Assembly: GCF_018977255.1 (NCBI RefSeq)
Contig: NW_024704742.1
Location: 73,286,001-73,350,000 of the forward strand
Source: Callorhinchus milii
Lineage: Eukaryota
Direction of reading: 5' to 3'
Length of the DNA: 64,000 bases
In this document: positions 14,620-58,564 of the stretch, in pieces
Layout: each line of letters begins with the position of its first letter
How positions within the stretch are numbered: position 1 is the stretch's first letter
Notes under the pieces: generated by a model
Database searches by the model: none
The model's input: the letters and a program-made list of their open reading frames with translations, nothing else
Told to the model about the DNA's origin: nothing
Position numbers and translations under genes: made by a program

Positions 14620-14900
14620 GCAACGCGAAGTATCTGCAGACGCTGGAAACGTCGGAACAAAAAAAAAACCCCAGAAGTGGTTGGGAACACTCAGCAGGTC
14701 AGGTGTGGGGAGAGGAAAGTGAGTGGCAGTCTTGGGGTCCACGATCCTTCGTCAGAACGGGGTCTGGTCCAGTTCAGGCGAAGGGTCGTGGACCCCAAAC
14801 ACTGACCCACTTTCCTCTCTCCACACCTGACCTGCTGAGTGTCCCCAACCCCTTCTGCTTTTGTTTCCACGTTTCAAATGATGCTTTCAGGATTTTTTAT
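14620..14900. mobile_element. Penelope-derived foldback of two inverted pseudo-LTR copies, in NANS intron 1
   Basis: Arms are reverse complements (aacactcagcaggtcagg...gggtccacga / tcgtggaccc...cctgacctgctgagtgt) and match the termini of the Penelope element at 21512-22664. Confidence 0.8.
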
Positions 14901-15504
14901 ATTTTTTATTGGGTTAACGATTATATGCATTTGCTTTTATGCATAAAACCAACTAAAAAACAAACACACACACACACAGTGCATAAACCCGCGTGTCCGC
15001 GTCGCGCAACTATCAAACTGATAACGTTCTCACGTGGATTTATTTATTCAATTGCGGTGAAACACTTGTAGTGGCAGCACCGGTGACTGACATTGCTGAG
15101 GGGGGGGGAGGTCCAGATCTACACCGAGGTGGGGTTTGCCCACTGGGAAATTGTTTCTCTCTGTTATTCAGATAAACAGAGGTACTGTCCATCCCATGTG
15201 ACGGGTGTTATATAAAATGCTCATTATTGTGGTTGGTGTACGTGCTGTGAATTGCACCTTGTGGTGTGTGTGTGTGGGGGGGGGGGGGGGGGGTCGCTCC
15301 ATGGACGGGAGGGCTTGCGGTCAGATTGCGGATGCAGGACCGCATTGCCTTCTCTGCACCGGTGGGGCTTCAGCAACTGGTGAGGGTGGGCGGGAGGTCC
15401 CCCCGCGGCCGCCGAGCAAAGCGCATCGGCCGTGTGTGGATGGGCAGCTCCGCCGTGTGAGCACTGAGCGGCTGCCAGTCACAGCGGCGCTCAGCTCATC
15501 AGCC

Positions 15505-15965
15505 CAGGCAGGGGCAGGGCAGGGCAAGGCAGGGGCAGGGCAGGGCAGGGGGGCCGGGCCAGGCAGGGCAGGGCAGGGCAGGGGGGCCGGGCCAGGCAGG
15601 GCAGGGCAGGGCAGGGGGGCCGGGCCAGGCAGGGCAGGGCAGGGCAGGGGGCCGGCCAGGCAGGGCAGGCAGGGGGGCCGGGCCAGGCAGGGCAGGGCAG
15701 GGGGGCCGGGCCAGGCAGGGCAGGGCAGGGGGGCCGGGCCAGGCAGGGCAGGGCAGGGCAGGGGGCAGGGCCAGGCAGGGCAGGGGGCAGGGGGGCCGGG
15801 CCAGGCAGGGCAGGGCAGGGCAGGGGGGCAGTGCCAGGCAGGGCAGGGCAGGGCCAGGCAGGCAGGCAGGGGGGCAGTGCCAGGCAGGGCAGGGCAGGGC
15901 CAGGCAGGGCAGGGCAGGGGGGCAGTGCCAGGCAGGGCCAGGCAGGGCCAGGCAGGGCAGGCACA
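15505..15965. repeat. G-rich (GGGCA/GGCCA)n minisatellite
   Basis: Visible tandem CAGGG pentamers with a higher-order unit of about 30 nt. Confidence 0.95.
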
Positions 15966-29639: not shown

Positions 29640-30560
29640 GCTGAGCAGGGAGGGAGCTGCAGTGAGTGCTGGATGGCGTGTGGGCTCTGTCAGTACTGAC
29701 GTGTTGGGTTGCAAATCCCCCCCTCAGTTTGCCTGCACCTCGCCCTGTGGTTGCCACTGCTCTGCCTGCGTGCGCTGCTCTCTCCCCCCCTCTCTCCCCC
29801 CACCCCCCCCCCCCCCCCACCCCGACAAGACGGGCAGACAGGACCATTGAGGTCAGGGACGGCCACAGGACATGGAGTTCGGGGTCGGGAACGGTGCGGT
29901 CCCTGGAGTCGACGAGGACCCGGCAGCCGCTTTCCTGGCGCAGCATCAGGATCAGATCGAGGGGATCGAGGGCGAGGAGGGTCTGGAGGAGCCCCTCCAC
30001 AGCCTGGGCACCGGAGGTGAGCACCGCTGGCACTGCCCGCCTCCTGCCTCCCTCCATCCCTCCCTCCCTCCCCCTCCATCCCTCCATCCCTCCATCCCTC
30101 GCTGGGGTGGGCAGCATTGTCTGCTCCTCTGATCCCTGATGTGATGGCACCTTCCCTGTGCGGCCCGGGATGATCCGTGTCGCAGTGAGACAGGTGTCCA
30201 GGAGACAGTGCATCGGGGAAATGCATATATATATATATATATTATATATATATATAGAGAGAGAGAGCTCCGAAGCCATGGGTTTCCCCGGGGACAGCCG
30301 GAGCCCTTTGCGCAGTGTGTCCGCGACTCCACAATCTCATCAGCGCGGATTAATGTGGCGATTAATCGCCAGAAGCGATTGCATTCAATGATGACACACA
30401 CAGGAGGGGAAAAAAAACCCTAAGGGACCCCCAATGGCGCACCAATTGTGATGCAAAGATAAACGATCAGCATCCGACACACCGGCATTTTTTCTCGTTG
30501 GTGGTTTTGCAGTACAATTTACATTGATACGGAGAGGAGTGCGACAACCAGATGGCTGCC
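29640..30560. promoter_or_regulatory. CpG/GC-rich promoter region of the clathrin light chain gene
   Basis: Local CpG enrichment around exon 1 against a CpG-poor background; judged by eye. Confidence 0.55.
29872..30016 (+). CDS. CLTA: Clathrin light chain (CLTA-like) coding exon 1
   Basis: MEFGVGNGAVPGVDEDPAAAFLAQHQDQIEGIEGEEGLEEPLHSLGTG contains the EDPAAAFLAQ light-chain motif; GTGAGC donor at 30017, phase 1. Assignment to CLTA rather than another paralogue is less certain than the family call. Confidence 0.88.
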
Positions 30561-41430: not shown

Positions 41431-41474
41431 AGTTAAATGAGGAAGTGGCTGCTGTCAATGGGGAACCAAGTCAG
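41431..41474 (+). CDS. CLTA: Clathrin light chain coding exon 2
   Basis: ttcttttcag acceptor, GTAAGC donor; 44 nt restores phase; (E)LNEEVAAVNGEPSQ resembles the short ...NGE..Q exon of CLTA/CLTB. Confidence 0.82.
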
Positions 41475-42599
41475 GTAAGCTACACATTGATGTGCCTCTA
41501 CTGTATTTTTTCCTGAAATCATAACCAATAAAACTACAATAAGAATAATATCCTTGAATTCGTATAATGCCTTATGCCATGGAGTCCTGTTGACAAGATG
41601 GGGAGACTGGCAAGGAGTGCATTGTAGAAATCAAGGCTGGAGGTGACAAAAACATGAAAGCATGAATGAGAACTTCAGCTGAAGTAAGAAGACAGGCAAT
41701 GTAGTGGAGGTGGAGTGAGACAGTTAAGGTCAGGGACCAGATGTGAGATAGTAAGGCTAACTGGGGATTGAACCTAACCCCAAGATTGTTTACGGGTTTG
41801 GTGAGGTTTAGGGATAGGCAGGTAAAGGTAAGGAGTTAAGAACGATAAAAAATGTAAATGATAAGATTTAGCGTTTAATATTTAGAAATGTAAGGAAACA
41901 TTCAATGAAGAAATGCCCTTCAAAACTATGTCTTGCAAAGCTTGTAAATGTAGTGCATGAGTGCTTCCTGACTCAGTGTGTCAGGGAGCCCAGACCTTTC
42001 CTTTCTTGACTTTGTTTCAGTCAATGACCAAGGCACAGTTCAGAGACAAGGATTGGTTGATCCACCAGGTGGCAGGGACCACAGCTCAATAACATTCAGT
42101 TTGACTTTGGAGCAGAAGCACGTAACCAAACTCATGCACAACTTTAGGTGGGCAAACCTCAGGGATATGAGACCTGAGCTAATGTAGACTGGGCTCGTTT
42201 ACTACACGTAAAATGGATCAATAGGAAATTATAAAGCGAGATAAAGAAAAAAAAGGAACATTTATAAAGTTTGTAGGGAGAAAAGAGAGGGTCATCTGAA
42301 TACAAGACTTTAGAGAAAGAGGTCCATGCTAATCCATGCCTTCATTATGTCTAGGCTTGCTTGACAGGGCCAACTCTCTGCTCGATGCTGCCAGAGAGGC
42401 GATACGGTCACCTGACTTTCTCAGGTGGTTGTGAAGACTGGTTCAGATCCAGAATGTCCCTTGACAATTCGGGGCCTAGAAGAGTTTGGGGCTATTCTGC
42501 GGGGACAGCCCGCATTCCCGAAGAGGAAAATTTGGGTCAATTTGGTTAATGGGGGTGAACAGGCCTAACCTCGCTCACCAAGAAAGAAAAAACTGCTCA

Positions 42600-43130
42600 A
42601 CGGACTTCCCAAACTTTCCCTCCACAACCTGCAGATTATTCAGAACTCTGCAGCTCATGTCCTCTCCCATGCCAAGCTCCATGAGCCTATTACCTCTATA
42701 CTTGCCGGGCTTTACTGGCTCCTCCATTCCTCAGAGAATTGAATTCAAGATCCTCGTCCTCACTTTTAAATCCCTCCACAGTCTTGCCTCACCCACCATC
42801 TGTGACCTCCTCAAACCATATCAACCCGACTGCAACCTTTACGCAGCAGGCACTGGCTTGAATCATGTTCCCCACCCTGCTTGTCCCATAATCGGTGGTG
42901 GGGCTTTTAGCATTTTTGCCCTCACTCTCTGGAACTCCATCCTAGAGTCCCTCTGACCTGTCCCCTCCCTCACCTTTTTTAAGGTCATTCTCAAGATCTT
43001 CCTCTTTGGCCATGCCTTTGGTCATCTTCCCGCTCCCCTCTTGGCTCCCAACCCCAGCTAGTCTGCCAAGCCAGGACTGTCAAGAGCCTTGGGACATCCG
43101 CCTGATTTGAAAGGTGGAAAAATGTAAATT
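42600..43130 (+). mobile_element. L2 3' fragment
   Basis: IPQRIEFKILVLTFKSLH and L2 tail. Confidence 0.85.
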
Positions 43131-44024
43131 TATGGTGTATTGGGGGTCATTCCACATTTCAACAACTCTCTATCTGAAAAAGTAATCTCTGAAGCTCTTC
43201 TTGTGAGTATCTTTTATCTACGACCCCAATTACTAGCCTCCCGACCATCACCTGCTAATGAGCGAATGCACGGATGCCCTCAATGAACAGTTTGAGGTTA
43301 AAAGGATGAGCAGAGATGGTCAAATGAAGCAAAAACTTTCTTAAGCATTGAATTTCCTCATTCTCCAGACTTTAGCTTCAAACATAAAAATTGAAAAAAC
43401 TTTAATGAAAGTGAGAGAAACTTTTAGAGGATAAATAGTGAAGATTCCACACACATACTCCATTGTGAACAACCACAAGAATGATCCAATCACAAGAGTC
43501 TAAAATGTGCCCATAAATAAATTCGCATTCGTGGAAGTTATGTGAAAAGTAATAGGCATTTCATAAGAGATGCAAATGCACTCCAAACCCACAGCAGTCA
43601 TCAAAATCACACAGAAAATTGATGCTTTTATTTAGTGCCCTTATAACCATGTGGAAGAGTTCATGTAAGGATTTCAAACTCATGTAGTCTTTGCTGACCA
43701 TGCCAATGCGGCACTGGGGGAGTGCTGCAACGCCGGTAGTGCCATCCTTCGTACAAGACATTTAACCGAGGCTCCATATTCCTGCTTAGGTAGGTGCTAA
43801 AAATCCCATGTCAACATTCGAAAAGAGAAGGGTGTCTCATCTGGCGCCTGGCCAAAGACCCCAAGCAAATCATTGTTTTCTCACTTCTTAGTTGTCTTCC
43901 TGGCCCTGCACGCAAACTGGTCGCATTGTTTCCATTCAAATAGAGTTATTAAAATCACATGAAGTAACAACAGCTTGCATTTATATAGTGCCCTCCACGC
44001 TGGGCGGCGTCCCAGAGCATTTAT

Positions 44025-44520
44025 AATAATAATAATCCTTGCATTTGATATAGCGCTTTTCACGTCGGGAGGATGACCCAAAGCGCTTCACAGAACACAC
44101 TGCAAAGTGAATTGACTGTATATTTGTGGGCGAACGCGGCAGCCAATTGCGCACAGCAATGTCCCACAAACAGTCGTAGATTGAAAATGACAAATTTAAT
44201 TATTGTTTTTGGTTTTGTTTTACCAATGGTGGAGCCCAATGCCGAACAGGGGGAGGGGGAAGATGACCATAGGCATGGTTGAAAAGGAAGGTCTTCAGGC
44301 ACAACCTGAAAGTGGAGAAAGAGGGGGCAAGGTGAATCAATTGAGGGAGGGAGTTCCATAGCTTCGGGGCATATTGGCTAAAGGCATGGCGGTGCATGGT
44401 GGAGCAGAGGATTCGAGGGACAAGGAGGAGGCCGGAGCCAGTAGAGTCGAGGCAGCAGGTAGTGCTGTGAGGACAGAGGAGTTTGGAGAGATAGGGGGGT
44501 GCCAAGATGTGGAGGGATTT
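44025..44520 (-). mobile_element. SINE 3' half plus an adjacent L2 3' fragment
   Basis: SINE body and tail at 44025-44220; APPYLS...AFSQYAPKLWNSLP at 44250-44520. Confidence 0.8.
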
Positions 44521-46049
44521 ACTGCCGAAAATCTTATTTTCTCACTCTCATTAAAGTTACTAACTTTGTTCATAGGAGTCAAAATGGCAGGAACAACCAG
44601 TCAGTGTAATGTCGGAGTGAGATAGCAGATAGCTTTGAGAGGAGAGTAGGCTGTCAAACGCTGATAACACCAAGGTAGTCATACATCCCTTTCACAAAAC
44701 TAAGAACGACAACTCTATCCTCCTGTAAACATCTACCAATCCTACTAATTGTTTTCCCCAATCAGAGACATGCACTGGCCGTGGGAGGAAAAGAGTTGCC
44801 AGGCACTGAGGATCAATACGAAAGCTGCTCTGTATCAGAAGCACTGTTATCTTCAAATGAAGAGAAGTCTGGTGCCAGACAAGATAATTCACAATTGATC
44901 AAATGAGCAACATGTGCAAAGCCTGAGTACGTGGCGGGCCTCATTGGGGGATCTAGGGGGAAGAACCCTTAGGCTGTATGGTTTAACTAACCTAGCATTA
45001 AGCAAGGTAGGTAGCAGATCCAGCCAAGTGAAGACGTGCAAGGGCTAATAAAGCTGACTGCTCCAAAACCGGTAGTATAAGTTTGTTACTTTTTAATCTA
45101 TCTGTTTTGTATGTATTACCCTGATCAATAAATCTCTATTACACCTTCACTGGATTGTCGGGTCATGATTCGAACCTGGGGATCGGAAATCCCAACAAAT
45201 TTCTCTCTATCCTTGTCTGCTGGCTTTAAGCATTACTAAAATACTGGAATAGACAAAGTAAATGTTACATAAAATAAATCAGAACAATGAATTCTTAATA
45301 CTATCACTTCTCCTTCTTGAACTGTCACAATGTTTACCTATCGATCCCGTAACCGCATGCTCTACCACACCCGATGCATACAAAACCCGTGCAGTTGCAA
45401 ATGTAGACGCTGTCCTCTGTGCAGGTATTGGCCGCTGTTGTGAAGTAGACGAGTGATTGGGTTGTACTTGTCCACTTATTCCCCCCCGAGCTGAAATTGA
45501 ATGTGAAGACCGGCTTTGTGGGTGGGAGAGTAAGCGAAGTATAAGTCGTCCCAGAAGAAGTCGCTGGAGGGAAAGCGACCTCCGTAGGGTGTAACAAGCC
45601 ATTGTCAGCATCTTAAGGAACTAAATCACAAAGTGAAAATCTCCCGTTTCTTTAGATACTTTAGTTGGTTAATATGATTGCAGTAAAGTTGGTGACCATC
45701 ATGTGAAGTGAGAATAGAAATTTGATCTATTTGTGCGACTGCCTCAAACTACTTGCACTACTAGCTTTACCAGGGATTCAATTGTAGTTTGGACATGATC
45801 ATTAGCTGCAAAAACAGTTTCACTTTATTTGGAAACCAAAGGGTAAGCTCTCTGAGCAGCCTTTGCTGATCAGCATGAAGCAGTGAGTGTCCGTTTGTTT
45901 ACCCAAACCAGAGTGCGAGCAGTCAGTGAATTGAAACTGCGGCTACAGTAAGTGATGTTTAAAGTTGCTGTGCTGTATAAATTTATTTTCTCATGTTTTT
46001 TTTCAATTAACCCATCCTACTCTCTCTCTCTTGACTTTTGTTAGTCTCT

Positions 46050-46797
46050 TTATTTAAGAGAACAACGTTTTGACCTTCCTGACTCCTCACAAGTATCAAG
46101 CAGACTAAACTGTTTGAGGGCTTTCAGATTAGCCATTAAGTCATCTCCCTGTTTGGTCTGGAGGCATATCAGTGAGGCACAAGGATCTATATGTTGCTCA
46201 ATCAATTGTCTCGTTGCCTTTAATTCCTTCTGTAATCTTTCAAATTCAGAAGTAACCATTTGTCCCAATATTTCTTCCAAATTTGACTCTTTATTATCTT
46301 TCTTAGTTTCACCTTTACAATCCTTCGTTATTGGTAGTTTTGTCATTGGATTTGAGTTCATCCCTTTACCTTCTTTTACCTGCAGAATTAATTTGTCCTG
46401 TTTTGTCTTTTAAACCTTGTGGTGAACCCTTGTTCTCCTGCACTTTTTCATTTTTTTTTGCCACTAAGACTGCTAGTTGTGCTTTAAGTCTGTCCACTTC
46501 TTCATCTTTCTCATGTTTAATTCTATCAATTTCTTTTCTTGCTTCATCTCGTTCTGAGTTAAACTTCTCAGATTTGTGTTTAGCTCGTTCTAACATCTCT
46601 CTTATACATTTAAGTTGTTCCTCCAACTGCAGTACCTTTTTGTGACACTGTATATGTGACACAGGCTCACCCTGTCTAGATTCCCTGGCCATAGCTGCCT
46701 GTGGTTTTACAGTAGCTTTTAAGGGTAAGGAACTGGAGGTTTTACTGATTTGAGGACTGCTTCCAGTCGCCTGCTGGAGAGTTACTAATGCAATCAA
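46050..46797 (-). pseudogene. Coiled-coil-rich ORF of unknown function inside the LTR element (two ORFs joinable by one frameshift near 46365)
   Basis: E/K-rich heptads LQLEEQLKCIREMLERAK...EVDRLKAQLAVL and FERLQKELKATRQLIE. Confidence 0.45.
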
Positions 46798-46884
46798 TCC
46801 AATTTTTGGTCCGTGGGTGAAGGTTTAGAGGTAACATAAGGGAAATTTTCAATTTGATTTAGATCCTGGTTGTGGCTCGCTCAG

Positions 46885-47600
46885 ACAATCACAAGCAAAG
46901 TGCCCTCTACCCTACATTCATAGAATTCGCTAGAGGCATTACTCCAATTACTACCCCTCCTCCTTGTCCTCCGTAAGGTCTGCCTCTTCCCCTAATAGTC
47001 CACTAATTTGGGAAGGGTCCCTCGACCTCACAGACTTCTTTCTTTACCTTACTCAGTCCGGGATCAGCCTGCACGAGCTGAGACTGCCTCCACGCCTGCA
47101 TGACTTTATCTATTATTTTCCCCCATGGAGTGTCTCCGTTCACAGCTACTCCTAAAGCTGTCTTAACCCAGGGTTGTAATTTTAATTTTTGTAGTTGGCA
47201 ATATCCCAGAATACGGTCGTGACAGGAGTAGTGGCCTGAGAAAGCTCATGTAAACTATTTTACCTCTGTTCGCCAATCTTTGGATTTTCTCTCTTCTGCT
47301 GCTCGCACTTCCCAATTTGAGCATGTACATCAAAACTTGCTACCCCGAGTATCGCCTTAATGGCATCAACCGTTCTTTGTGCTGTTGTAGCTGCACCAAA
47401 TATCGGCGCTCCCATTGTCCCTTAACCTTTAAAACTGTTGCCATCAAAACCACTCTTTTCGTATCCTGATCACTCAACTCAGGATGGCTTTGTACAAAAA
47501 TGTTCTAAGTCGTACTGAGTTTGAATGACTCCCAGTTCCTGGGCTACAGCCTCACACTCGGGGTCAGTAAGCGGGCAATTCTCCTCATAACTAGCAGTTA
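46885..47600 (-). pseudogene. Frameshifted gag remnant (capsid, RG-rich region, CCHC zinc knuckle)
   Basis: Manual translation across frameshifts gives MHR-like CEQQKRENP..LANR, then LQPWVKTALG, RGRGRPYGGQGGG and a decayed knuckle FYECRVEG/HFACDC at 46885-46925. Confidence 0.7.
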
Positions 47601-48545
47601 CCCCCCTCGAGGGTTAGTACGCGTAGTTCGATAAACCACCTCTACCAGTCCCATTGCACCACTCAGGGATCCTTAATCAATTTGTTGGGATTTCCGAGCC
47701 CCAGGTTCAAATCATGACCCGACAATCCAATAAAGGTGTAATAGAGATTTATTGATCAGAGTAATACATACAAAAAAGATAGATTAAAAAGTATCAAACT
47801 TATACTACCGGTTTTGGAGCAGTCAGCTTTATCAGCCCCTGCACGTCTTCACTTGGCTGGATCTGCTACTTACCTTGCTTAATGCTAGGTTAGTTAAACC
47901 ATACAGCCTAAGGGTTCTTCCCCTTAGTTCCGCCAATCAGAGGCCGGCCACGTACTCAGGCATTGCACACGTTGCTCATTTGATCAATTGTGAATTATCA
48001 TGTTTGCGCTGTATGGCTGGCACCAGACTTCTTCTATTTCGAATACCCATAGTATAAGTTTGTTACCTTTTAATCCATCTGTTTTGTAATTATTATCCTG
48101 ATCAATAAATCTCTATTACACCTTTTTTGGATTGTCGGGTCATTATTCAAACCTGTGGATCGGAAATCCCAACAGTACCATCACTATAAATGATTATGAT
48201 AAGGTACATATCATTTGCAAGGACCATAATTATTATTATTACAACAACTCTTGAAATGTGTTTAAATTGTCTTGATTTTTTTACATTAAATTTCACAACT
48301 AATTTCATGATTAAAACCAACTCTATTTTTAAAAATAATCCTTGATTTTGATACAGTGACCTTCAAAGGATTCATGTAAAGTGACTGTGGCTATGCACCT
48401 TATGGGGCAGGGAACCGGTGCACAGCAACACCCAAAAAATAGCCATGAAATATCTTGTACTTGCTCTCATGTTTCCATTGTTTTGGGTGTAGTTGTTGTG
48501 AGACAGAAAGGATTACCTTTTGAAAACAATTGTGTATGTATGGTT

Positions 48546-49354
48546 TGTTGGGATTTCCGATCCCGTAGTTCGATATATGACCCGACAATCCAAATATGGT
48601 GTAGCAAGGTTTATTATGAACAGAGTGAACATAACATGCATTAACAAGTTACTACAAATGTCTAACAAATTATACTACCAGTCTTTGAAGACAGTCACAC
48701 AACGTCATGGAACACCTTCCTTGTGATTCTTAGATTTCACCACACTGGTCTCTCTCTCTCTCTGGAGCCTTCCTGTTCTTCTAACCGTTCTCACCTAGAG
48801 TGCCATATTATACCCTTTCTCCAAGTGTCCTTCCTAAGGCCCCTCTACCCACTTCTGATACAGTCACGTACTCAGGTTAATCTGAGTCTCCACGAGGTCT
48901 TCCCTTTGTCCTATATGAGATAGGAGATCGATCAGTTTAGGGCTATATCTGGTGCTTGTTATTTTGTTGTGTGGGATCATTAGTATATTCCTTTTAAGTG
49001 ACTGGTTATTTCTTATCAGTATCCTGGGATGGTACCGAGGTCCTCTGGTTTAAACAACTTGCTCGTTAGCTGCTATTCTTGAGGGTTGCCTTCTGTCGGT
49101 TGGCCCTGTCAGAATCTAGCAACTTATTGCTCAGTCAAGATCCTGTGTCGACCGGTACCTTGGACCGTTACCTCTGTGGGCTTCTTGTTATTTATGATAA
49201 GAGGTGACCTTCTGCCCTTTTCCAAAGCTGTCTTGTTATTCTTTCAGAAACAGAGAAAACCAGATGTGTCCTATCCCATGACTGTCAGTACTTTCTCCAT
49301 TCTACATTTGTTTAATGTTCATTATTATTAGACTACAACTTCTATAATCTAACA
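48546..49354 (-). mobile_element. Solo LTR (809 bp), related at its U5 end to the 44852-48174 repeats
   Basis: TGTT...AACA termini, TSD GGTT on both sides, AATAAA on the minus strand near 48612. Confidence 0.88.
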
Positions 49355-50669
49355 GGTTGAACTAAATTAACCATTCATGAAATTAAGCAAAGGGTTGATT
49401 GCAGCATCTGATTTGTACATTTGTATCTCCAGGATAAGTTCCAATCTGTGGTTACAATTTTTCATTGCTATCCCTCGAGTCCAATGTGTGAGTTCACAAA
49501 CCCAGATTTGCTGGATTAATTGGAATTTTCAATTTGCAGTTACTGTTTTTGAAAAATTCAAGAATACAAAATTGTAAATCTTAAAAAAGGATCGGAAACT
49601 CCTGGTCATTTTACCCATTGGCTTTTTATTAGATATCTTCACCCAATAGTTAATTCACTCTAATTCCCTCTTGAGTTTATTTACCAATTTGGCTCCACTG
49701 ACTCCATGGGTCATCTTTCTAAATATTTCCCATTAAATGTAAACCTGAGCTGTCTGTTTGCCTCCCGTCTTCTGAGCTTGATCCTTTGTCCCCATGTTCT
49801 AAATTGTCCATGTTGAACATTAAATAAATTGGATCGCCTTCACCAACTAGTTCAACCATCTACTAAAAGAATTCCAGGAGATTTGTGATTCATGGCTTCT
49901 GAAACCTCTCAGAATTCTGGTGTCCCAATCCTTCAAGCAACTTCTTCAACTTTCAGTCACAAGATGAGTTTGGATAAAGAAGGCCCTATTGTTCTGAGTT
50001 TACTTTTTCAGTAATTTAATTTAATTTTTTATATGCCTTGAGGAGGTCCCCTCTAAGTTGGCATCTCTCAAAACTAAGAACTCTAGCTTGTCTAGTCATT
50101 GCTCATAACTCATTCCTCAGACACTGGAGATCATACCTACAATCCATCTGCCCCAATCTTCTCGTCTTCTCAACAACAATTTTACACTAGAGCACCTTTC
50201 ACATTTGAGGATGTCTCAACCTATTTCACAGAGCAAATGAAAGCCATTGGTAGGGGAGGGTGGGGAGAGCTGGGGAAAGTAGGGAAGAAAGGGGATCAAA
50301 TGCATAGTCAAAAACAAATTTCTTAAGGTAGCCTCTAAAGGGAGGCTGGAAGGTGGTGATATGGAGGGAGGGACTCCAGGATGGAATTTCTAAGAACAGG
50401 AGCTACATTGCTGTAAGATCACTGACCAATATTTGGTTGGGTCAGGTAGGGGGCATGAAGCAGGCAGATGTTTGTTGGGTGGAGAGAATTACCAAGGTGA
50501 TAGGGTTTCACAAGGTTCAGCGAGGAGCTGGGGAGTCTGGCGTGTAGGGTGTTGAAAAAATCTTGCTTAGATGTGATGAAGACATGAATAAGGGCATTGG
50601 CAGCTTGGAGGGAGAAGTAGAGGTAGAGGAGGTGGCTGATGATGCTTAGGTGAGGGAGAGCCTTTTGTG

Positions 50670-50931
50670 GCCAAAACATGGCAGCCAGTTACGAATAGCA
50701 GTATCCCACAAACAGTCGTGGACTGAGTGACCAATTATTATTTTTTTAAGGAATGATTATCCTCAGAAAAGTAATCCACCAATCAACTGACAACCAGTTT
50801 CCTACTTACTACTAGGTAAATAGAGGCATGCGGAGTAAGGAAACTTACCCAACATTTTGCCCTGCTGGGAATCAAACCCAGGCCCTCTAGCTTGCGAGGT
50901 GAGTCCTCTAACCACCGAGCTACAGGACTCC
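50670..50931 (-). mobile_element. tRNA-derived SINE, long variant, tail missing
   Basis: Head and body match the family. Confidence 0.85.
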
Positions 50932-52911
50932 ATATTCAGCTGGAGAAAGCTGGAACCCATTATAAGATTATATTTGTGGTCTTTAATGTTTTTTTAAGGC
51001 TTTTAATTAATCTGTACATGCATTTAGAATGTAACCTACCCATAATTCTTTAATAAGGTTTGTTTGATAGAATGATTAGCTTAGCAGGGGTTAAATGTAG
51101 CTCTGATGGAGCGGTTGAGGTTAGCTTCTGATTACATTTCATATTTCCCTGAGAAGATGTTGACTCCTCTGAGATAATGAGTAATCGAGTCCTTGAGCAG
51201 AAATGTAAGAACAATGGACCAGAGAAAGAAAAGGCTACAGACAGACACCTGCCTATCTCAAGCAGAGAATCAGGCAGGCTCAAAAGTTGCCCATATCTTT
51301 CTCCTTATCAGATATTTTCCAATGCGAAAAGAGCCTGCTCAAAGATCGCTAGCAGCCTGCGAAGGGTGGGGGCTGTCTGTCTCTGTGACAAGGGGAGGTG
51401 AAGTTAGAAACGCATAAAAGAAAGATGTAACTTTGACATAGTTGGAGTTGTGTAGAGGGTCAGCACACTTCCCAGTGGAATCAATATCGATTCTACTGTA
51501 TCTATGTATAGTATACAGGGGTGAGGGAATTTACCTCCAGTAAGAAAGTGACTATTGAAAGTAAAAGAGGAGGAGTAGTGACTGGGTATCATGTTTTCGG
51601 TTCTGTCTGCTAGGTAGAGAAGTAGTAGCAATAGTAGTGGTTGGCCTGTTTGAAACACAGAAGTCAGGTTAGACAGTACAAGTGAGGTGTGGGCTAAGGG
51701 CTGAGTGTTTATGTTGGGTTTCCAGGAATCACTCTGTGATTCTGTGTGATAGTTCTGTGATCTCTCCAATGTATGTCAAGGTGTGATCCCAGGTCTACTG
51801 TCTGGTCTGGAGTACAAAACAGTACCTGGATACGTGTTGTTGTTCCTGTATTGTCAGTACTACTGTTGTTATCTAAAGGTAGAGCAGAAGAGAGCAACTA
51901 TGAGTTAGACAGGGTAGGACTCTAGAAAAGATGACTCTGGGAGACCTTATAAAATTTTAATTGGGATTGACAAAGGAAACAACATCAACAACACATTACA
52001 TTTGGATAGCGCCTTTCACATCCCAAGGCATTGGACCATCAAGGATTTTGACCTGGGAGGTAGCGGCGGAATAGGTTAATCCCCAAACAATACTTTAAAA
52101 TACATCAAGACAAGAGAACAGAGGTTTAGAGTTGTGAAAGGCAATTTCAAGACAGACATCAGGCAGGTTTTCTTTACTTAGAAGGTAATTATTGTTCCAA
52201 AGTCTGAATGTGAAAGTTGCTATATGAAAGGGTTGGATTATCTTTACAGTCACAAAATCAGGAAGCTTATCTTTGGATTGTTTTATTTGCATATGGTTAT
52301 TATAGGTAATTCCTTCGAACCTCCCTTACTTACCTAATTACTTGTCCAGCTGTTCCCTTGAAATGCTAAGCCTATAGAAGTTGCCATTTGAGTGAACACC
52401 TTCTGGAAATCTGCCTCGATGGCATATACTGCCCTGCCCCTCTTGCCTCCATCTACCACCTTGAGATTACATCAAATAATTGAAGTATGTGAGTCAACAA
52501 CTTGCACTTATTGCACCTTTCATATAGGATAACCTCCCAGAGCTCTGGCAGACATGACCCGTCCTTTGCAAACCCACATGACTCCCAATTGATCAGCTTC
52601 TTAAAAGAATGCAGTGTCCTAGTCTCAAATACCTTCCTGGTAAAGTTTCAGCTGTTAGTTACCATCTGTGTACAGAAATATCTCATGGTGTTTGTCCTAA
52701 AATTGCATTGCTTTGCTCAGGCATGCTCTCTTGTATTGTTACCTTGGGGTATCTGAAAGCATCAGTGAGTTGAAGAAAGTACTTTTTGCAGCTTTTATAA
52801 TACCATAGGATGTGAGCAGACATAATTAACAATAAGGATTAACATAGAGTTTGTAGAGCCCTTGTTGTCAGAACAAATACAATGATACATTTTCCAAATT
52901 TGTTTCCATAG

Positions 52912-57390: not shown

Positions 57391-58411
57391 ACCTGGGCAC
57401 CACACTACAGGAAGGATGTTGTTGGATATCAAGAAAGGTCACCCAGCATTCCGTTTAGGCAAAATCTGTTAAGCCAAACTTTACTAGTTCCATAAAGTTA
57501 CACCATGGAGGGATTACAATAAAGCAATACCACCGCGGGTCGGGACGTTCAGCAGCCGAGGTTCCAATCTGTCTTGTTTGGGTATTCAAGCTTTTTGATC
57601 TTCCATCAAGTCTTCCCTCGTGCTCCTCCGATCTTTTCCTTCTGTTTTTCCTTCTTTGTTCTTTATACTCTTTATACTTTATACTCTCATCCCAATCCCT
57701 CTATACCTTCCTCCAATCTCTTATCAGTCGTTTACAACCGGTTATTAACAACTGATAAGAGATTGGAGGACGGTATAGAGGGATTGGGATGAGAGTATAA
57801 CATCTCCAATCACGTTTCCTTCAAACCTCTTTCCTTGTGCTGACTCCATATGTTCCATGACCTCTCATCCCTTTTGACCCATTGTTAGTATGTTAATTCT
57901 GCACCCTTATGCTAACAATGTTACGGCATTGGAAAGGATGTAGAGGAGATTTATGAGGATGGTACCAGGAATGAGGGACCTTGATTATGGGGAAAGGCAC
58001 GAGAGACTGGGATTATTCTCATTGGAGCAGAGAAGGTTACGAGGAGACCTAACAGAGGTCTTCAAAATCATGAGGGAATTTGATAGGTTAGAAAGGGAAA
58101 AACTGTTTCCACTGGTGGGTGTGTCGGTGACTCAGGTCACAGATTCAAAATAGTCTCTAAAAGAAGCAGAGGGGAGAAGAAATGTTTTCATGCAGCGAGT
58201 TGTTCGAATCTGGAACGCATTGCCTGAAAGGGTGGTCGAGGCCGATTCGATAACTATTTTAAAAATGCGGTGGACGGGTATTTGAGGAGTACGGGTTTGC
58301 AGGGTTATGGGGAAGGCGCTGGGGAGTGGGATTGACATTAATTGCTCTATTGAAAAAGCCGGCACAAACTCGATGGGCCGAATGGCCTCTTTTTGTACTG
58401 TACGGTTCTAT
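57391..58411 (+). mobile_element. CR1 3' fragment interrupted by the LTR
   Basis: LGLFSLEQRRLRGDL, RIWNALPE, 3' UTR gggccgaatggcct; flanking GAATA duplication. Confidence 0.88.
57420..57917. mobile_element. Solo LTR (498 bp) inserted in a CR1, containing a 122-bp palindrome
   Basis: TGTT...AACA termini, TSD ATGT; CR1 reading WAPHYRKDV/TALER resumes across it. Confidence 0.87.
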
Positions 58412-58564
58412 GAATACTGCAGACCTGCCTGGCTCAGGAACCAGATTACCGAGACCGCCATAGAGAGCTGGCTCGATTCTGAAATTCTGTTGCCAGACAT
58501 GACACCTTGGAGCCAGTTCAGCTCCAAGTAGACCCTGAATAATATTTTATTTTAGAAGCATTTT

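Follow-up and report, generated by a model that had tools for sequence, protein, structure and literature searches.

Inverted long terminal repeats around a decayed gag in a putative clathrin light chain intron of Callorhinchus milii: a one-off fossil of a retrovirus-like element

A stretch of 64,000 nucleotides (nt) from Callorhinchus milii (RefSeq assembly GCF_018977255.1, contig NW_024704742.1, positions 73,286,001–73,350,000 of the forward strand; hereafter the window, in whose own numbering coordinates are given) contains, inside a putative intron of the clathrin light chain gene, a gag-bearing element whose long terminal repeats (LTRs) are inverted relative to each other. The question raised by this locus is whether such a structure belongs to a mobile family with inverted LTRs or is what became of an ordinary element. 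The structure is a one-off fossil of a dead retrovirus-like LTR element and represents no new element class. As to its origin, the explanation we favour, and regard as probable by a small measure, is that a broken complementary DNA (cDNA) had its unprocessed U5 end joined head-on to its own gag region and was captured without integrase.

Self-comparison of the window recovered inverted arms at 44940–45201 and 47679–47940 (262 nt, 95% identity), which extend with indels out to about 44852 and 48043, together with an inverted match between 47683–47818 and 48039–48174 (136 nt, 87%) and a direct match between 45062–45197 and 48039–48174 (89%). Gap-free identity is 322/339 (95.0%) between the left and right arms, and 114/125 (91.2%) and 111/125 (88.8%) between the third end and the arms. 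A preliminary description made from the letters alone had reported two reverse-complementary units of about 350 bp and an R/U5-like end occurring three times at 91–95% identity by hand count. The inverted arms are real, but what lies on the left is an LTR of 650 bp that begins at 44548, and the three copies are present, but the third (88.8–91.2%) falls somewhat below that count. The AATT reported at both inner joints was recovered at 45198–45201 and 47679–47682, and the element indeed has no reverse transcriptase (RT) or integrase match. An LTR ending at 44845 with a GCAC/GTAC target duplication was considered and ruled out, as the LTR runs on to 44548. The parts of the structure are as follows:

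44527–44550, + strand: last 24 bases of the internal region before the polypurine tract in ordinary copies (24/24 bases match the motif)
44548–45197, + strand: left LTR, 3'-type, U3-R-U5 (end-to-end alignment with solo and 5' LTRs elsewhere)
45198–45201, + strand: AATT extension past the CA of the LTR (same bases after 5' LTRs ahead of the primer site)
45202–47678, − strand: piece of the interior of a gag-only element, truncated on either side and lying in the opposite orientation to the left LTR (65 genomic matches)
46994–47666, − strand: decayed gag with its N-terminus cut, with stops and frameshifts (tblastn with the natural 368-amino-acid (aa) frame of another copy)
47679–47682, − strand: AATT(G) past the CA of the inverted LTR, with primer site, leader and gag start absent behind it
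47683–48043, − strand: apparent mate LTR, 5'-type, its 3' 361 bases, inverted relative to the left LTR (95.0% gap-free identity to the left LTR)
48046–48174, + strand: U5 end of a third LTR, same subtype, more diverged (89–91% to both arms)

The 125-bp terminal inverted repeats previously proposed for 47683–48174 are two separate LTR ends that meet at a joint unique to this locus. When this 492-bp unit was compared with the genome, 84 matches were obtained (40 of 144 candidates scored), none of which extended elsewhere beyond the first 361 bases of the unit, and its inner joint was spanned at no other genomic locus (14/14 candidates scored). Treating 47683–48174 as a miniature inverted-repeat transposable element (MITE) or Ginger-like unit was rejected, as the flanks (AATT versus GTAC) show no target duplication and no second copy exists. 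The genome search, which had been proposed as a check on shared architecture, shows relatives with ordinary direct LTRs, and the window structure is thus a one-off.

The family to which the element belongs is an ordinary retrovirus-like family with gag-only derivatives. In other copies the real LTR is about 700–750 bp long, begins with TGTTGG, ends with CCCAACA and runs in the same direction as 44548–45197; TG..CA termini with short inverted ends and a poly(A) signal are present. Nine perfect 4-bp target duplications were found on solo LTRs among 49 U5 ends in the loci examined. The 5' LTRs are followed by AAT and then by a primer site (8 exact loci) complementary to genomic transfer RNA (tRNA)-Arg(TCG). 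Copies with the same internal region as the window element carry direct LTRs, and both the tRNA primer site and the polypurine tract before the 3' LTR (17/17 other occurrences of the preceding motif) are present in the family and deleted at the window locus. About a dozen copies of the window LTR subtype were found in 1 Gb. Where the preliminary description had suggested a non-autonomous family whose LTR core can invert between long terminal inverted repeats, the outcome it had itself named as refuting this idea was the one obtained, and only the non-autonomous, gag-bearing part of that suggestion holds.

The internal fragment (45202–47678) is 88.7–90.7% identical, gap-free, to 11 other copies over 45201–46500, and in other copies internal sequence runs on at both of its sides. 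The purine tract seen before the TG at 45197 is accordingly no polypurine tract, since 21/21 other copies reaching 45201, among 29 loci retrieved, continue there into common internal sequence. Nor does gag start about 80 bp past the CA, as had been supposed: the homologous open frame elsewhere has at least 125 further upstream residues (in copy L053, 125 residues precede the first match), and the window gag is truncated. A degenerate zinc knuckle follows gag at about 46885–46935, and at the homologous place in L033 zf-CCHC is matched at E 1e-7, the CCHC knuckle being above the cut-off in homologous copies. Against a pol-bearing relative, the 368-aa frame matches gag at 28% identity (E 1e-8). 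In protein searches, an 80-aa frame of the window and the 368-aa frame of another copy both remained without a match, no capsid family was found in Pfam for homologous gag copies (Atlas gave leads at 0.85 only), and a six-frame Pfam search of the element with X at stops, which is weak for decayed DNA, found no RT, integrase or recombinase family.

The left LTR carries AATAAA 71 bases before its CA end, lacks its first ~57 bp (the missing start has 0 matches elsewhere in the window) and has a ~46-bp deletion at 44599. It is entered directly from the 44527–44550 motif, across a deletion with 3-base microhomology that removed the polypurine tract along with ~57 bp from the start of the LTR. At the other 17 of the 18 distinct occurrences of this motif in the loci examined, the motif leads into a 10-base purine-rich tract and an LTR-like start, with AC directly before the LTR start in 15/17 of these 3' ends. 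Because the family's pre-polypurine motif directly precedes it, the left unit is assigned as a 3' LTR.

In ordinary copies 3' LTRs are followed by host DNA, whereas the left LTR here is followed by AAT(T) and then by the inverted internal region. The AATT is made up of a three-base spacer and a single base that agrees with the 3' end of the tRNA. On the sense strand at the 45201 joint, 21 other copies mostly read CAT, not ATT, which argues that the AAT derives from the LTR side; for a processed integrase joint to lie here, two neighbouring substitutions would have had to recreate the spacer. Genomic U5 ends followed by AAT read AATT in 20/20 cases, leading into a primer site (12), a damaged primer site (2), a solo LTR with AATT as target duplication (2) or odd joints (4, the window's included). 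No real pre-polypurine motif was found upstream of 19 LTR ends that lead into sequence of the AATT[AG]G type (one loose match is attributed to chance), so that an LTR shared between a polypurine tract and a primer site is a layout unseen elsewhere (0/19). The AATT at the window joint is likely the LTR's own extension, that is, an unprocessed cDNA terminus. Such an extension retained past the CA of a 3' LTR is the mark of end-joined cDNA, with a chance AATT target as the possible alternative.

Comparable termini were found at two further loci. At L133 (C3:19.56 Mb) the LTR reads CA-AATT-AC-TG and continues into a copy of its own U3 start, and because AC precedes the LTR start in most 3' ends of the family, both uncut cDNA ends appear to be joined there. 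The whole arrangement (L133:4227–5166, C3:19.558–19.559 Mb) comprises an LTR, AATT-AC, a repeat of that LTR's U3 start (93%), a further AATT and a piece of LTR (96%) that is inverted and has an internal deletion; on its sequence this is a 2-LTR-circle-type joint plus an inversion. At L135:2953 (C1:53.886 Mb), the primer site has given way to a U5 end of 44 bp from another subtype, inverted and joined as CA-AAT-AATT; this end is about two thirds alike by hand count and meets the leader at a 10-bp stem. A loose genome pattern, CA-AAT..TG, gave 46 matches against 14 for a control; the 24 matches examined include a real U5 end in L133 and L135 only, and a perfect-looking match on C9 was put down to chance. 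We tentatively suggest that this possibly foamy/loki-like family may repeatedly have entered the germline as end-joined unprocessed cDNA, with at least three loci (the window, C3:19.56 Mb and C1:53.89 Mb) preserving AAT(T)/AC termini, the tRNA-primer base among them, as a fossil record of where an extinct retrovirus had its cDNA ends and its RNase H cut, and as a sign of integrase-independent entry. Within the limited range of literature searched, no description of such joints in endogenous retroviruses was found.

The kinship of the arms is consistent with the two LTRs of one element. Their identity (95.0%) lies within the span of five ordinary LTR pairs (93.2–96.8%); a sixth pair (88.0%) is not independent, as L117 and the C33 copy have their 5' LTR in common, and a 200-bp 'LTR pair' in L144 was dropped from the set as a short interspersed nuclear element (SINE). 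The two copies at L078–L079 (C33:0.17 Mb) and L117 (C3:37.63 Mb) have an identical 5' LTR stretch and different 3' LTRs, reflecting either duplication or redundant assembly. The best match of the inverted half-LTR is the left LTR, with the next best copy at 88.9%, and 6 letters (13 with a less strict cut-off) are private to the two arms, neither the third end nor 10 other copies having them. Judged by its identity and by these letters, the inverted half-LTR is the mate of the left LTR. The third end lacks both arm-specific letters in its span and ends in a clean CA against host DNA (GTAC). An arm divergence of 5% would correspond to ~50 million years, uncorrected and with a shark rate borrowed from PMC10699275 (this and the other cited sources are drawn on in part).

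A 3'-type LTR, its AAT(T) end, the inverted abutment of that end on an internal breakpoint, an inverted half-LTR as closest relative, outer ends neither of which is a natural cDNA end, and a unique layout form the basis for the reading as captured cDNA. A linear cDNA would have broken ~2.5 kb into an already gag-only internal region, and the downstream piece (running up to the pre-polypurine motif, the 3' LTR and AATT) would have been ligated head-on to the upstream piece (5' LTR and gag). The outer ends would then have been trimmed and joined, on the left to a long interspersed nuclear element (LINE) fragment and on the right to a further LTR of this subtype, at its U5 end; that LTR may have been inserted earlier or may be a third piece of cDNA. 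The primer site with its leader and the polypurine tract would have been deleted during or after joining, and the product would have been taken into the chromosome by host repair and not by integrase, as for Ty1 in the portion of PMC11372161 used here. Among the alternatives in the preliminary description, an autointegration or inversion product with AATT as the duplicated target comes closest: an inversion product joined at an LTR terminus is retained, but the AATT is not a duplicated target and there is no processed integrase joint.

Several points weigh against this explanation. It requires several further deletions, and only homology or coincidence would bring the element to rest beside an LTR end of its own rare subtype. 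True AATT target duplications occur at two solo LTRs (L137:6515 and L142:7468), which shows that host DNA can supply an AATT behind a 3' LTR; among perfect target duplications found without selecting for AAT, the count of AATT is 0/7. Lesions directly past AATT are also seen at plain 5' LTRs (L141 and L143), and the site past AATT may be fragile in DNA. The mate (94.4%) stands 5.5 points above the next best copy (88.9%), compared with 2.2–3.0 in the five ordinary pairs, and both arms show the same decay at 5/10 family CpG sites, a gap and a common decay that fit later chromosomal duplication or conversion. In a read check with short-read contigs from four runs of a single study, whose counts apply to the contigs listed, no contig bridges the left AATT joint (45201).

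The main rival, unlikely in our judgement though still to be reckoned with, is a chromosomal rearrangement after normal insertion, in which a staggered break or template switch inverted an internal piece and left an inverted duplication of the 3' half of the LTR. It continues our first working model (left LTR as the 5' LTR, third end as its 3' LTR, later duplication), which was demoted by the pre-polypurine motif found to the left of the LTR. In one variant the left LTR is the shared LTR of a tandem pair and the third end the old 3' LTR; in another, the event flipped the 3' LTR of a provirus that by chance had AATT as its target site. The arm-private letters (6, or 13), several of them of CpG-decay type and missing from the third end, favour a chromosomal event, as do outer ends that read as one + strand element, the 10-bp U5-leader stem around the primer site, where lesions cluster, and the inverted duplications that are well known at inversion breakpoints (PMC1885836). 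However, such an event needs either the layout of polypurine tract, LTR and primer site that was seen in 0/19 cases or a target that was AATT by chance and a break falling precisely on its border; moreover, the arms are as alike as ordinary LTR pairs, the third end is more diverged than most pairs, and L133 independently shows AATT as an uncut cDNA end.

It is improbable that two or three same-subtype elements inserted independently, in opposing orientations, with later deletions and with gene conversion acting on the inverted arms. The intron is a landing site for the family, a fourth LTR (48546–49354) lying nearby, the third end looks independent, and the inverted gag pair at C1:117.55 Mb, with arms only 85–90% alike, offers a parallel. 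Yet the arms are sisters over their whole length, so that conversion would have to span all 360 bp in a subtype of about a dozen copies, and the AAT after the 3' LTR would be left unexplained. Nested insertions followed by rearrangement, also put forward in the preliminary description, are a minor rival, which may account for the third LTR end.

An assembly error folding one LTR copy into an inverted pair is very improbable. Among the contigs listed, the 44548 joint, like the left AATT joint, is unbridged, which would suit such an error, but the arms differ by 5% and both versions occur in the read runs, and three joints are bridged by contigs at single-copy depth: the joint at 48045 in 4/4 runs, the right host joint in 4/4 runs and the right AATT joint in 2/4 runs. 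Finally, a mobile family with inverted LTRs (DIRS-like), or with an LTR core flipping between long terminal inverted repeats, is scarcely credible: the locus does show inverted arms and three copies of one end, and L133 is a second locus with LTR, AATT, spacer, AATT and an inverted LTR piece, but the unit and its joint are found at the window locus only, with no second copy having the same joints, direct LTRs flanked by 4-bp target duplications occur in the relatives, together with a tRNA primer site and a DDE integrase, there is neither an internal complementary region nor a recombinase family match, and convergent pairs among the first 100 of 174 U5-end matches are confined to the window locus and L133, which differs in every breakpoint.

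The structure and its nearest neighbour of the same family lie in the following setting:

41475–52911, + strand: putative host intron 2 of the clathrin light chain gene (exon motifs and splice phases)
48546–49354, − strand: separate solo LTR of another subtype, a neighbour outside the structure (perfect 4-bp target duplication AACC)

The solo LTR, the fourth LTR of the family in this intron, lies ~370 bp from the structure. The clathrin light chain gene is marked by an exon 1 motif at 29917 and by the WREEQ exon from 52912 (+ strand), both of which we take to be clathrin exons by their motifs. A candidate exon 2 of 44 bp (41431–41474) has fitting splice phases, and the earlier placement of the element inside intron 2 fits the sequence, with this candidate on its left and the WREEQ exon on its right.

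The arms could pair in the pre-mRNA, with a predicted duplex energy of −585 kcal/mol. Other inverted pairs of similar length and identity occur in the gene, at 58561–58893/62856–63184 (92.8%) and 34988–35301/36961–37273 (87.5%), and the predicted arm stem is not special in the clathrin light chain gene, where long intronic stems are common. The first of these is a SINE-like inverted pair (92.8% over 334 bp) that flanks a clathrin exon at about 60200 and is a possible candidate substrate for circularisation or skipping of that exon; the second is an inverted pair of the same SINE-like repeat in intron 1. Self-comparison of the window also found short palindromes at 14672–14857 and 57679–57800 (85% and 93%) and a tandem array at 15504–15963.

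Pol-bearing relatives that share the U5 end and primer site encode RT, a gypsy-like tether, a second RNase H, a DDE (rve) integrase and a further open frame. Two such relatives, both broken and both with gag, are L112:1400–6900 (C2:34.05 Mb) and L116:1340–7100 (C21:0.24 Mb), in which the further frame has a hydrophobic start and a basic motif; the 131-aa piece after integrase in L112, an env-like frame, had no Pfam match. Among solved structures, the RT of the relatives has its best match in foamy virus Pol (E 3e-31), ahead of murine leukaemia virus (3e-22) and Ty3 (4e-17). Dual RNase H (tether plus new RNase H) is present in L112 and L116 only, the window element being without pol. TATA-like and CCAAT-like motifs lie 120–260 bases from the CA end, within the arm (as motif positions only), and the far end of the inverted arm as a transcription start, which would make the arm strong-stop DNA, is unsupported, as these motifs sit inside the arm.

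Other observations concern the family at large. In the 5' LTRs of L105, L110, L141, L143 and L007, a 10-bp U5-leader inverted repeat encloses the primer site, and deletions or replacements cluster inside it; related LTRs have at least 3 different primer-site types. At L071–L072 (C22:8.4535–8.4640 Mb), three tandem 3,462-bp units (99.6% identity) each contain a window-subtype LTR and leader, and internal region follows the last unit in normal orientation. At L069:5622–8279 (C1:117.55 Mb), inverted gag pieces are 85–90% alike, and one arm is 98% identical to a copy at C1:118.19 Mb, suggesting a duplication breakpoint.

The window element itself is dead, unique and of no importance as an element; it is functionless, and its sole effect would be a further long stem in the RNA of the intron. 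If the cDNA reading is true, uncut end-joined cDNA, known from infected cells and from yeast break repair, can become fixed in a vertebrate germline, and a 3' LTR followed by the primer-side spacer would be a simple signature by which such events could be counted in any genome. Termini of DIRS- or MITE-like appearance can arise from rearranged LTR elements, which calls for caution in annotation.

In autointegration, which yields inversion circles, a 3' LTR end meets the internal region in inverted orientation, behind which the 5' LTR lies inverted as well, and integrase joins the processed CA directly to the target. The topology of the window structure is the same as that of this product, but three spacer bases are kept and a matching U3 joint is absent; of the marks of integrase-made autointegration (CA direct to target, U3 joint and target duplication), none was found here, both window joints being U5 ends. 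DIRS1-like elements resemble the locus in appearance, with inverted terminal repeats around a gag-bearing interior, but, as far as the consulted part of PMC3266345 describes them, they differ from the window family, which has direct LTRs, tRNA priming and target duplications and in which no tyrosine recombinase was found. No DIRS1-type internal complementary region was detected when 45202–47678 was compared with either end (word size 7, E ≤ 1), no Pfam family for tyrosine recombinase or methyltransferase domains was found in six frames (X at stops, a weak test for decayed DNA), and the absence of target site duplication that is a DIRS1 trait does not apply, as solo LTRs of the family carry 4-bp duplications. 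Likeness to lokiretrovirus-like and foamy-related endogenous retroviruses with dual RNase H (in the sections used of PMC9040795, PMC8922424 and PMC10699275) lies in the domains of the pol-bearing relatives, to which the window element, itself without pol, is tied by its U5 end and primer site and by 28% gag identity.

Staggered-break inversions (Ranz et al., PMC1885836) share with the locus an inverted segment beside which the sequence at one breakpoint is duplicated in inverted form; the cases treated in the part of that work used here are large host inversions, whereas the window breakpoint falls on a cDNA terminus and the arms resemble each other as closely as the two LTRs of a pair. The structure also resembles Ty1 cDNA captured at double-strand breaks, for which the part of PMC11372161 drawn on reports cDNA-only extra bases in 40/56 3' LTR insertions: in both, a 3' LTR with cDNA-only bases, ragged ends and no target duplication point to integrase-free joining, but the yeast experiments concern short inserts, whereas the window holds a 3.5-kb multi-piece vertebrate fossil for which capture at a break is our inference. 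In human immunodeficiency virus 1 (HIV-1), RNase H leaves the last tRNA ribonucleotide, and circle junctions join unprocessed U5 ends to gag or nef pieces (PMC5618025, in part). The window joint is like these 2-LTR circle junctions in having an uncut U5 terminus with a tRNA-primer base joined to a cDNA end or internal fragment, and L133 shows the textbook U5-to-U3 form. Unlike the HIV-1 junctions, the window joint is head-on (inverted) to gag-region DNA, lies in a germline chromosome and is old, and the extensions of its family are AAT(T) at U5 and AC at U3.

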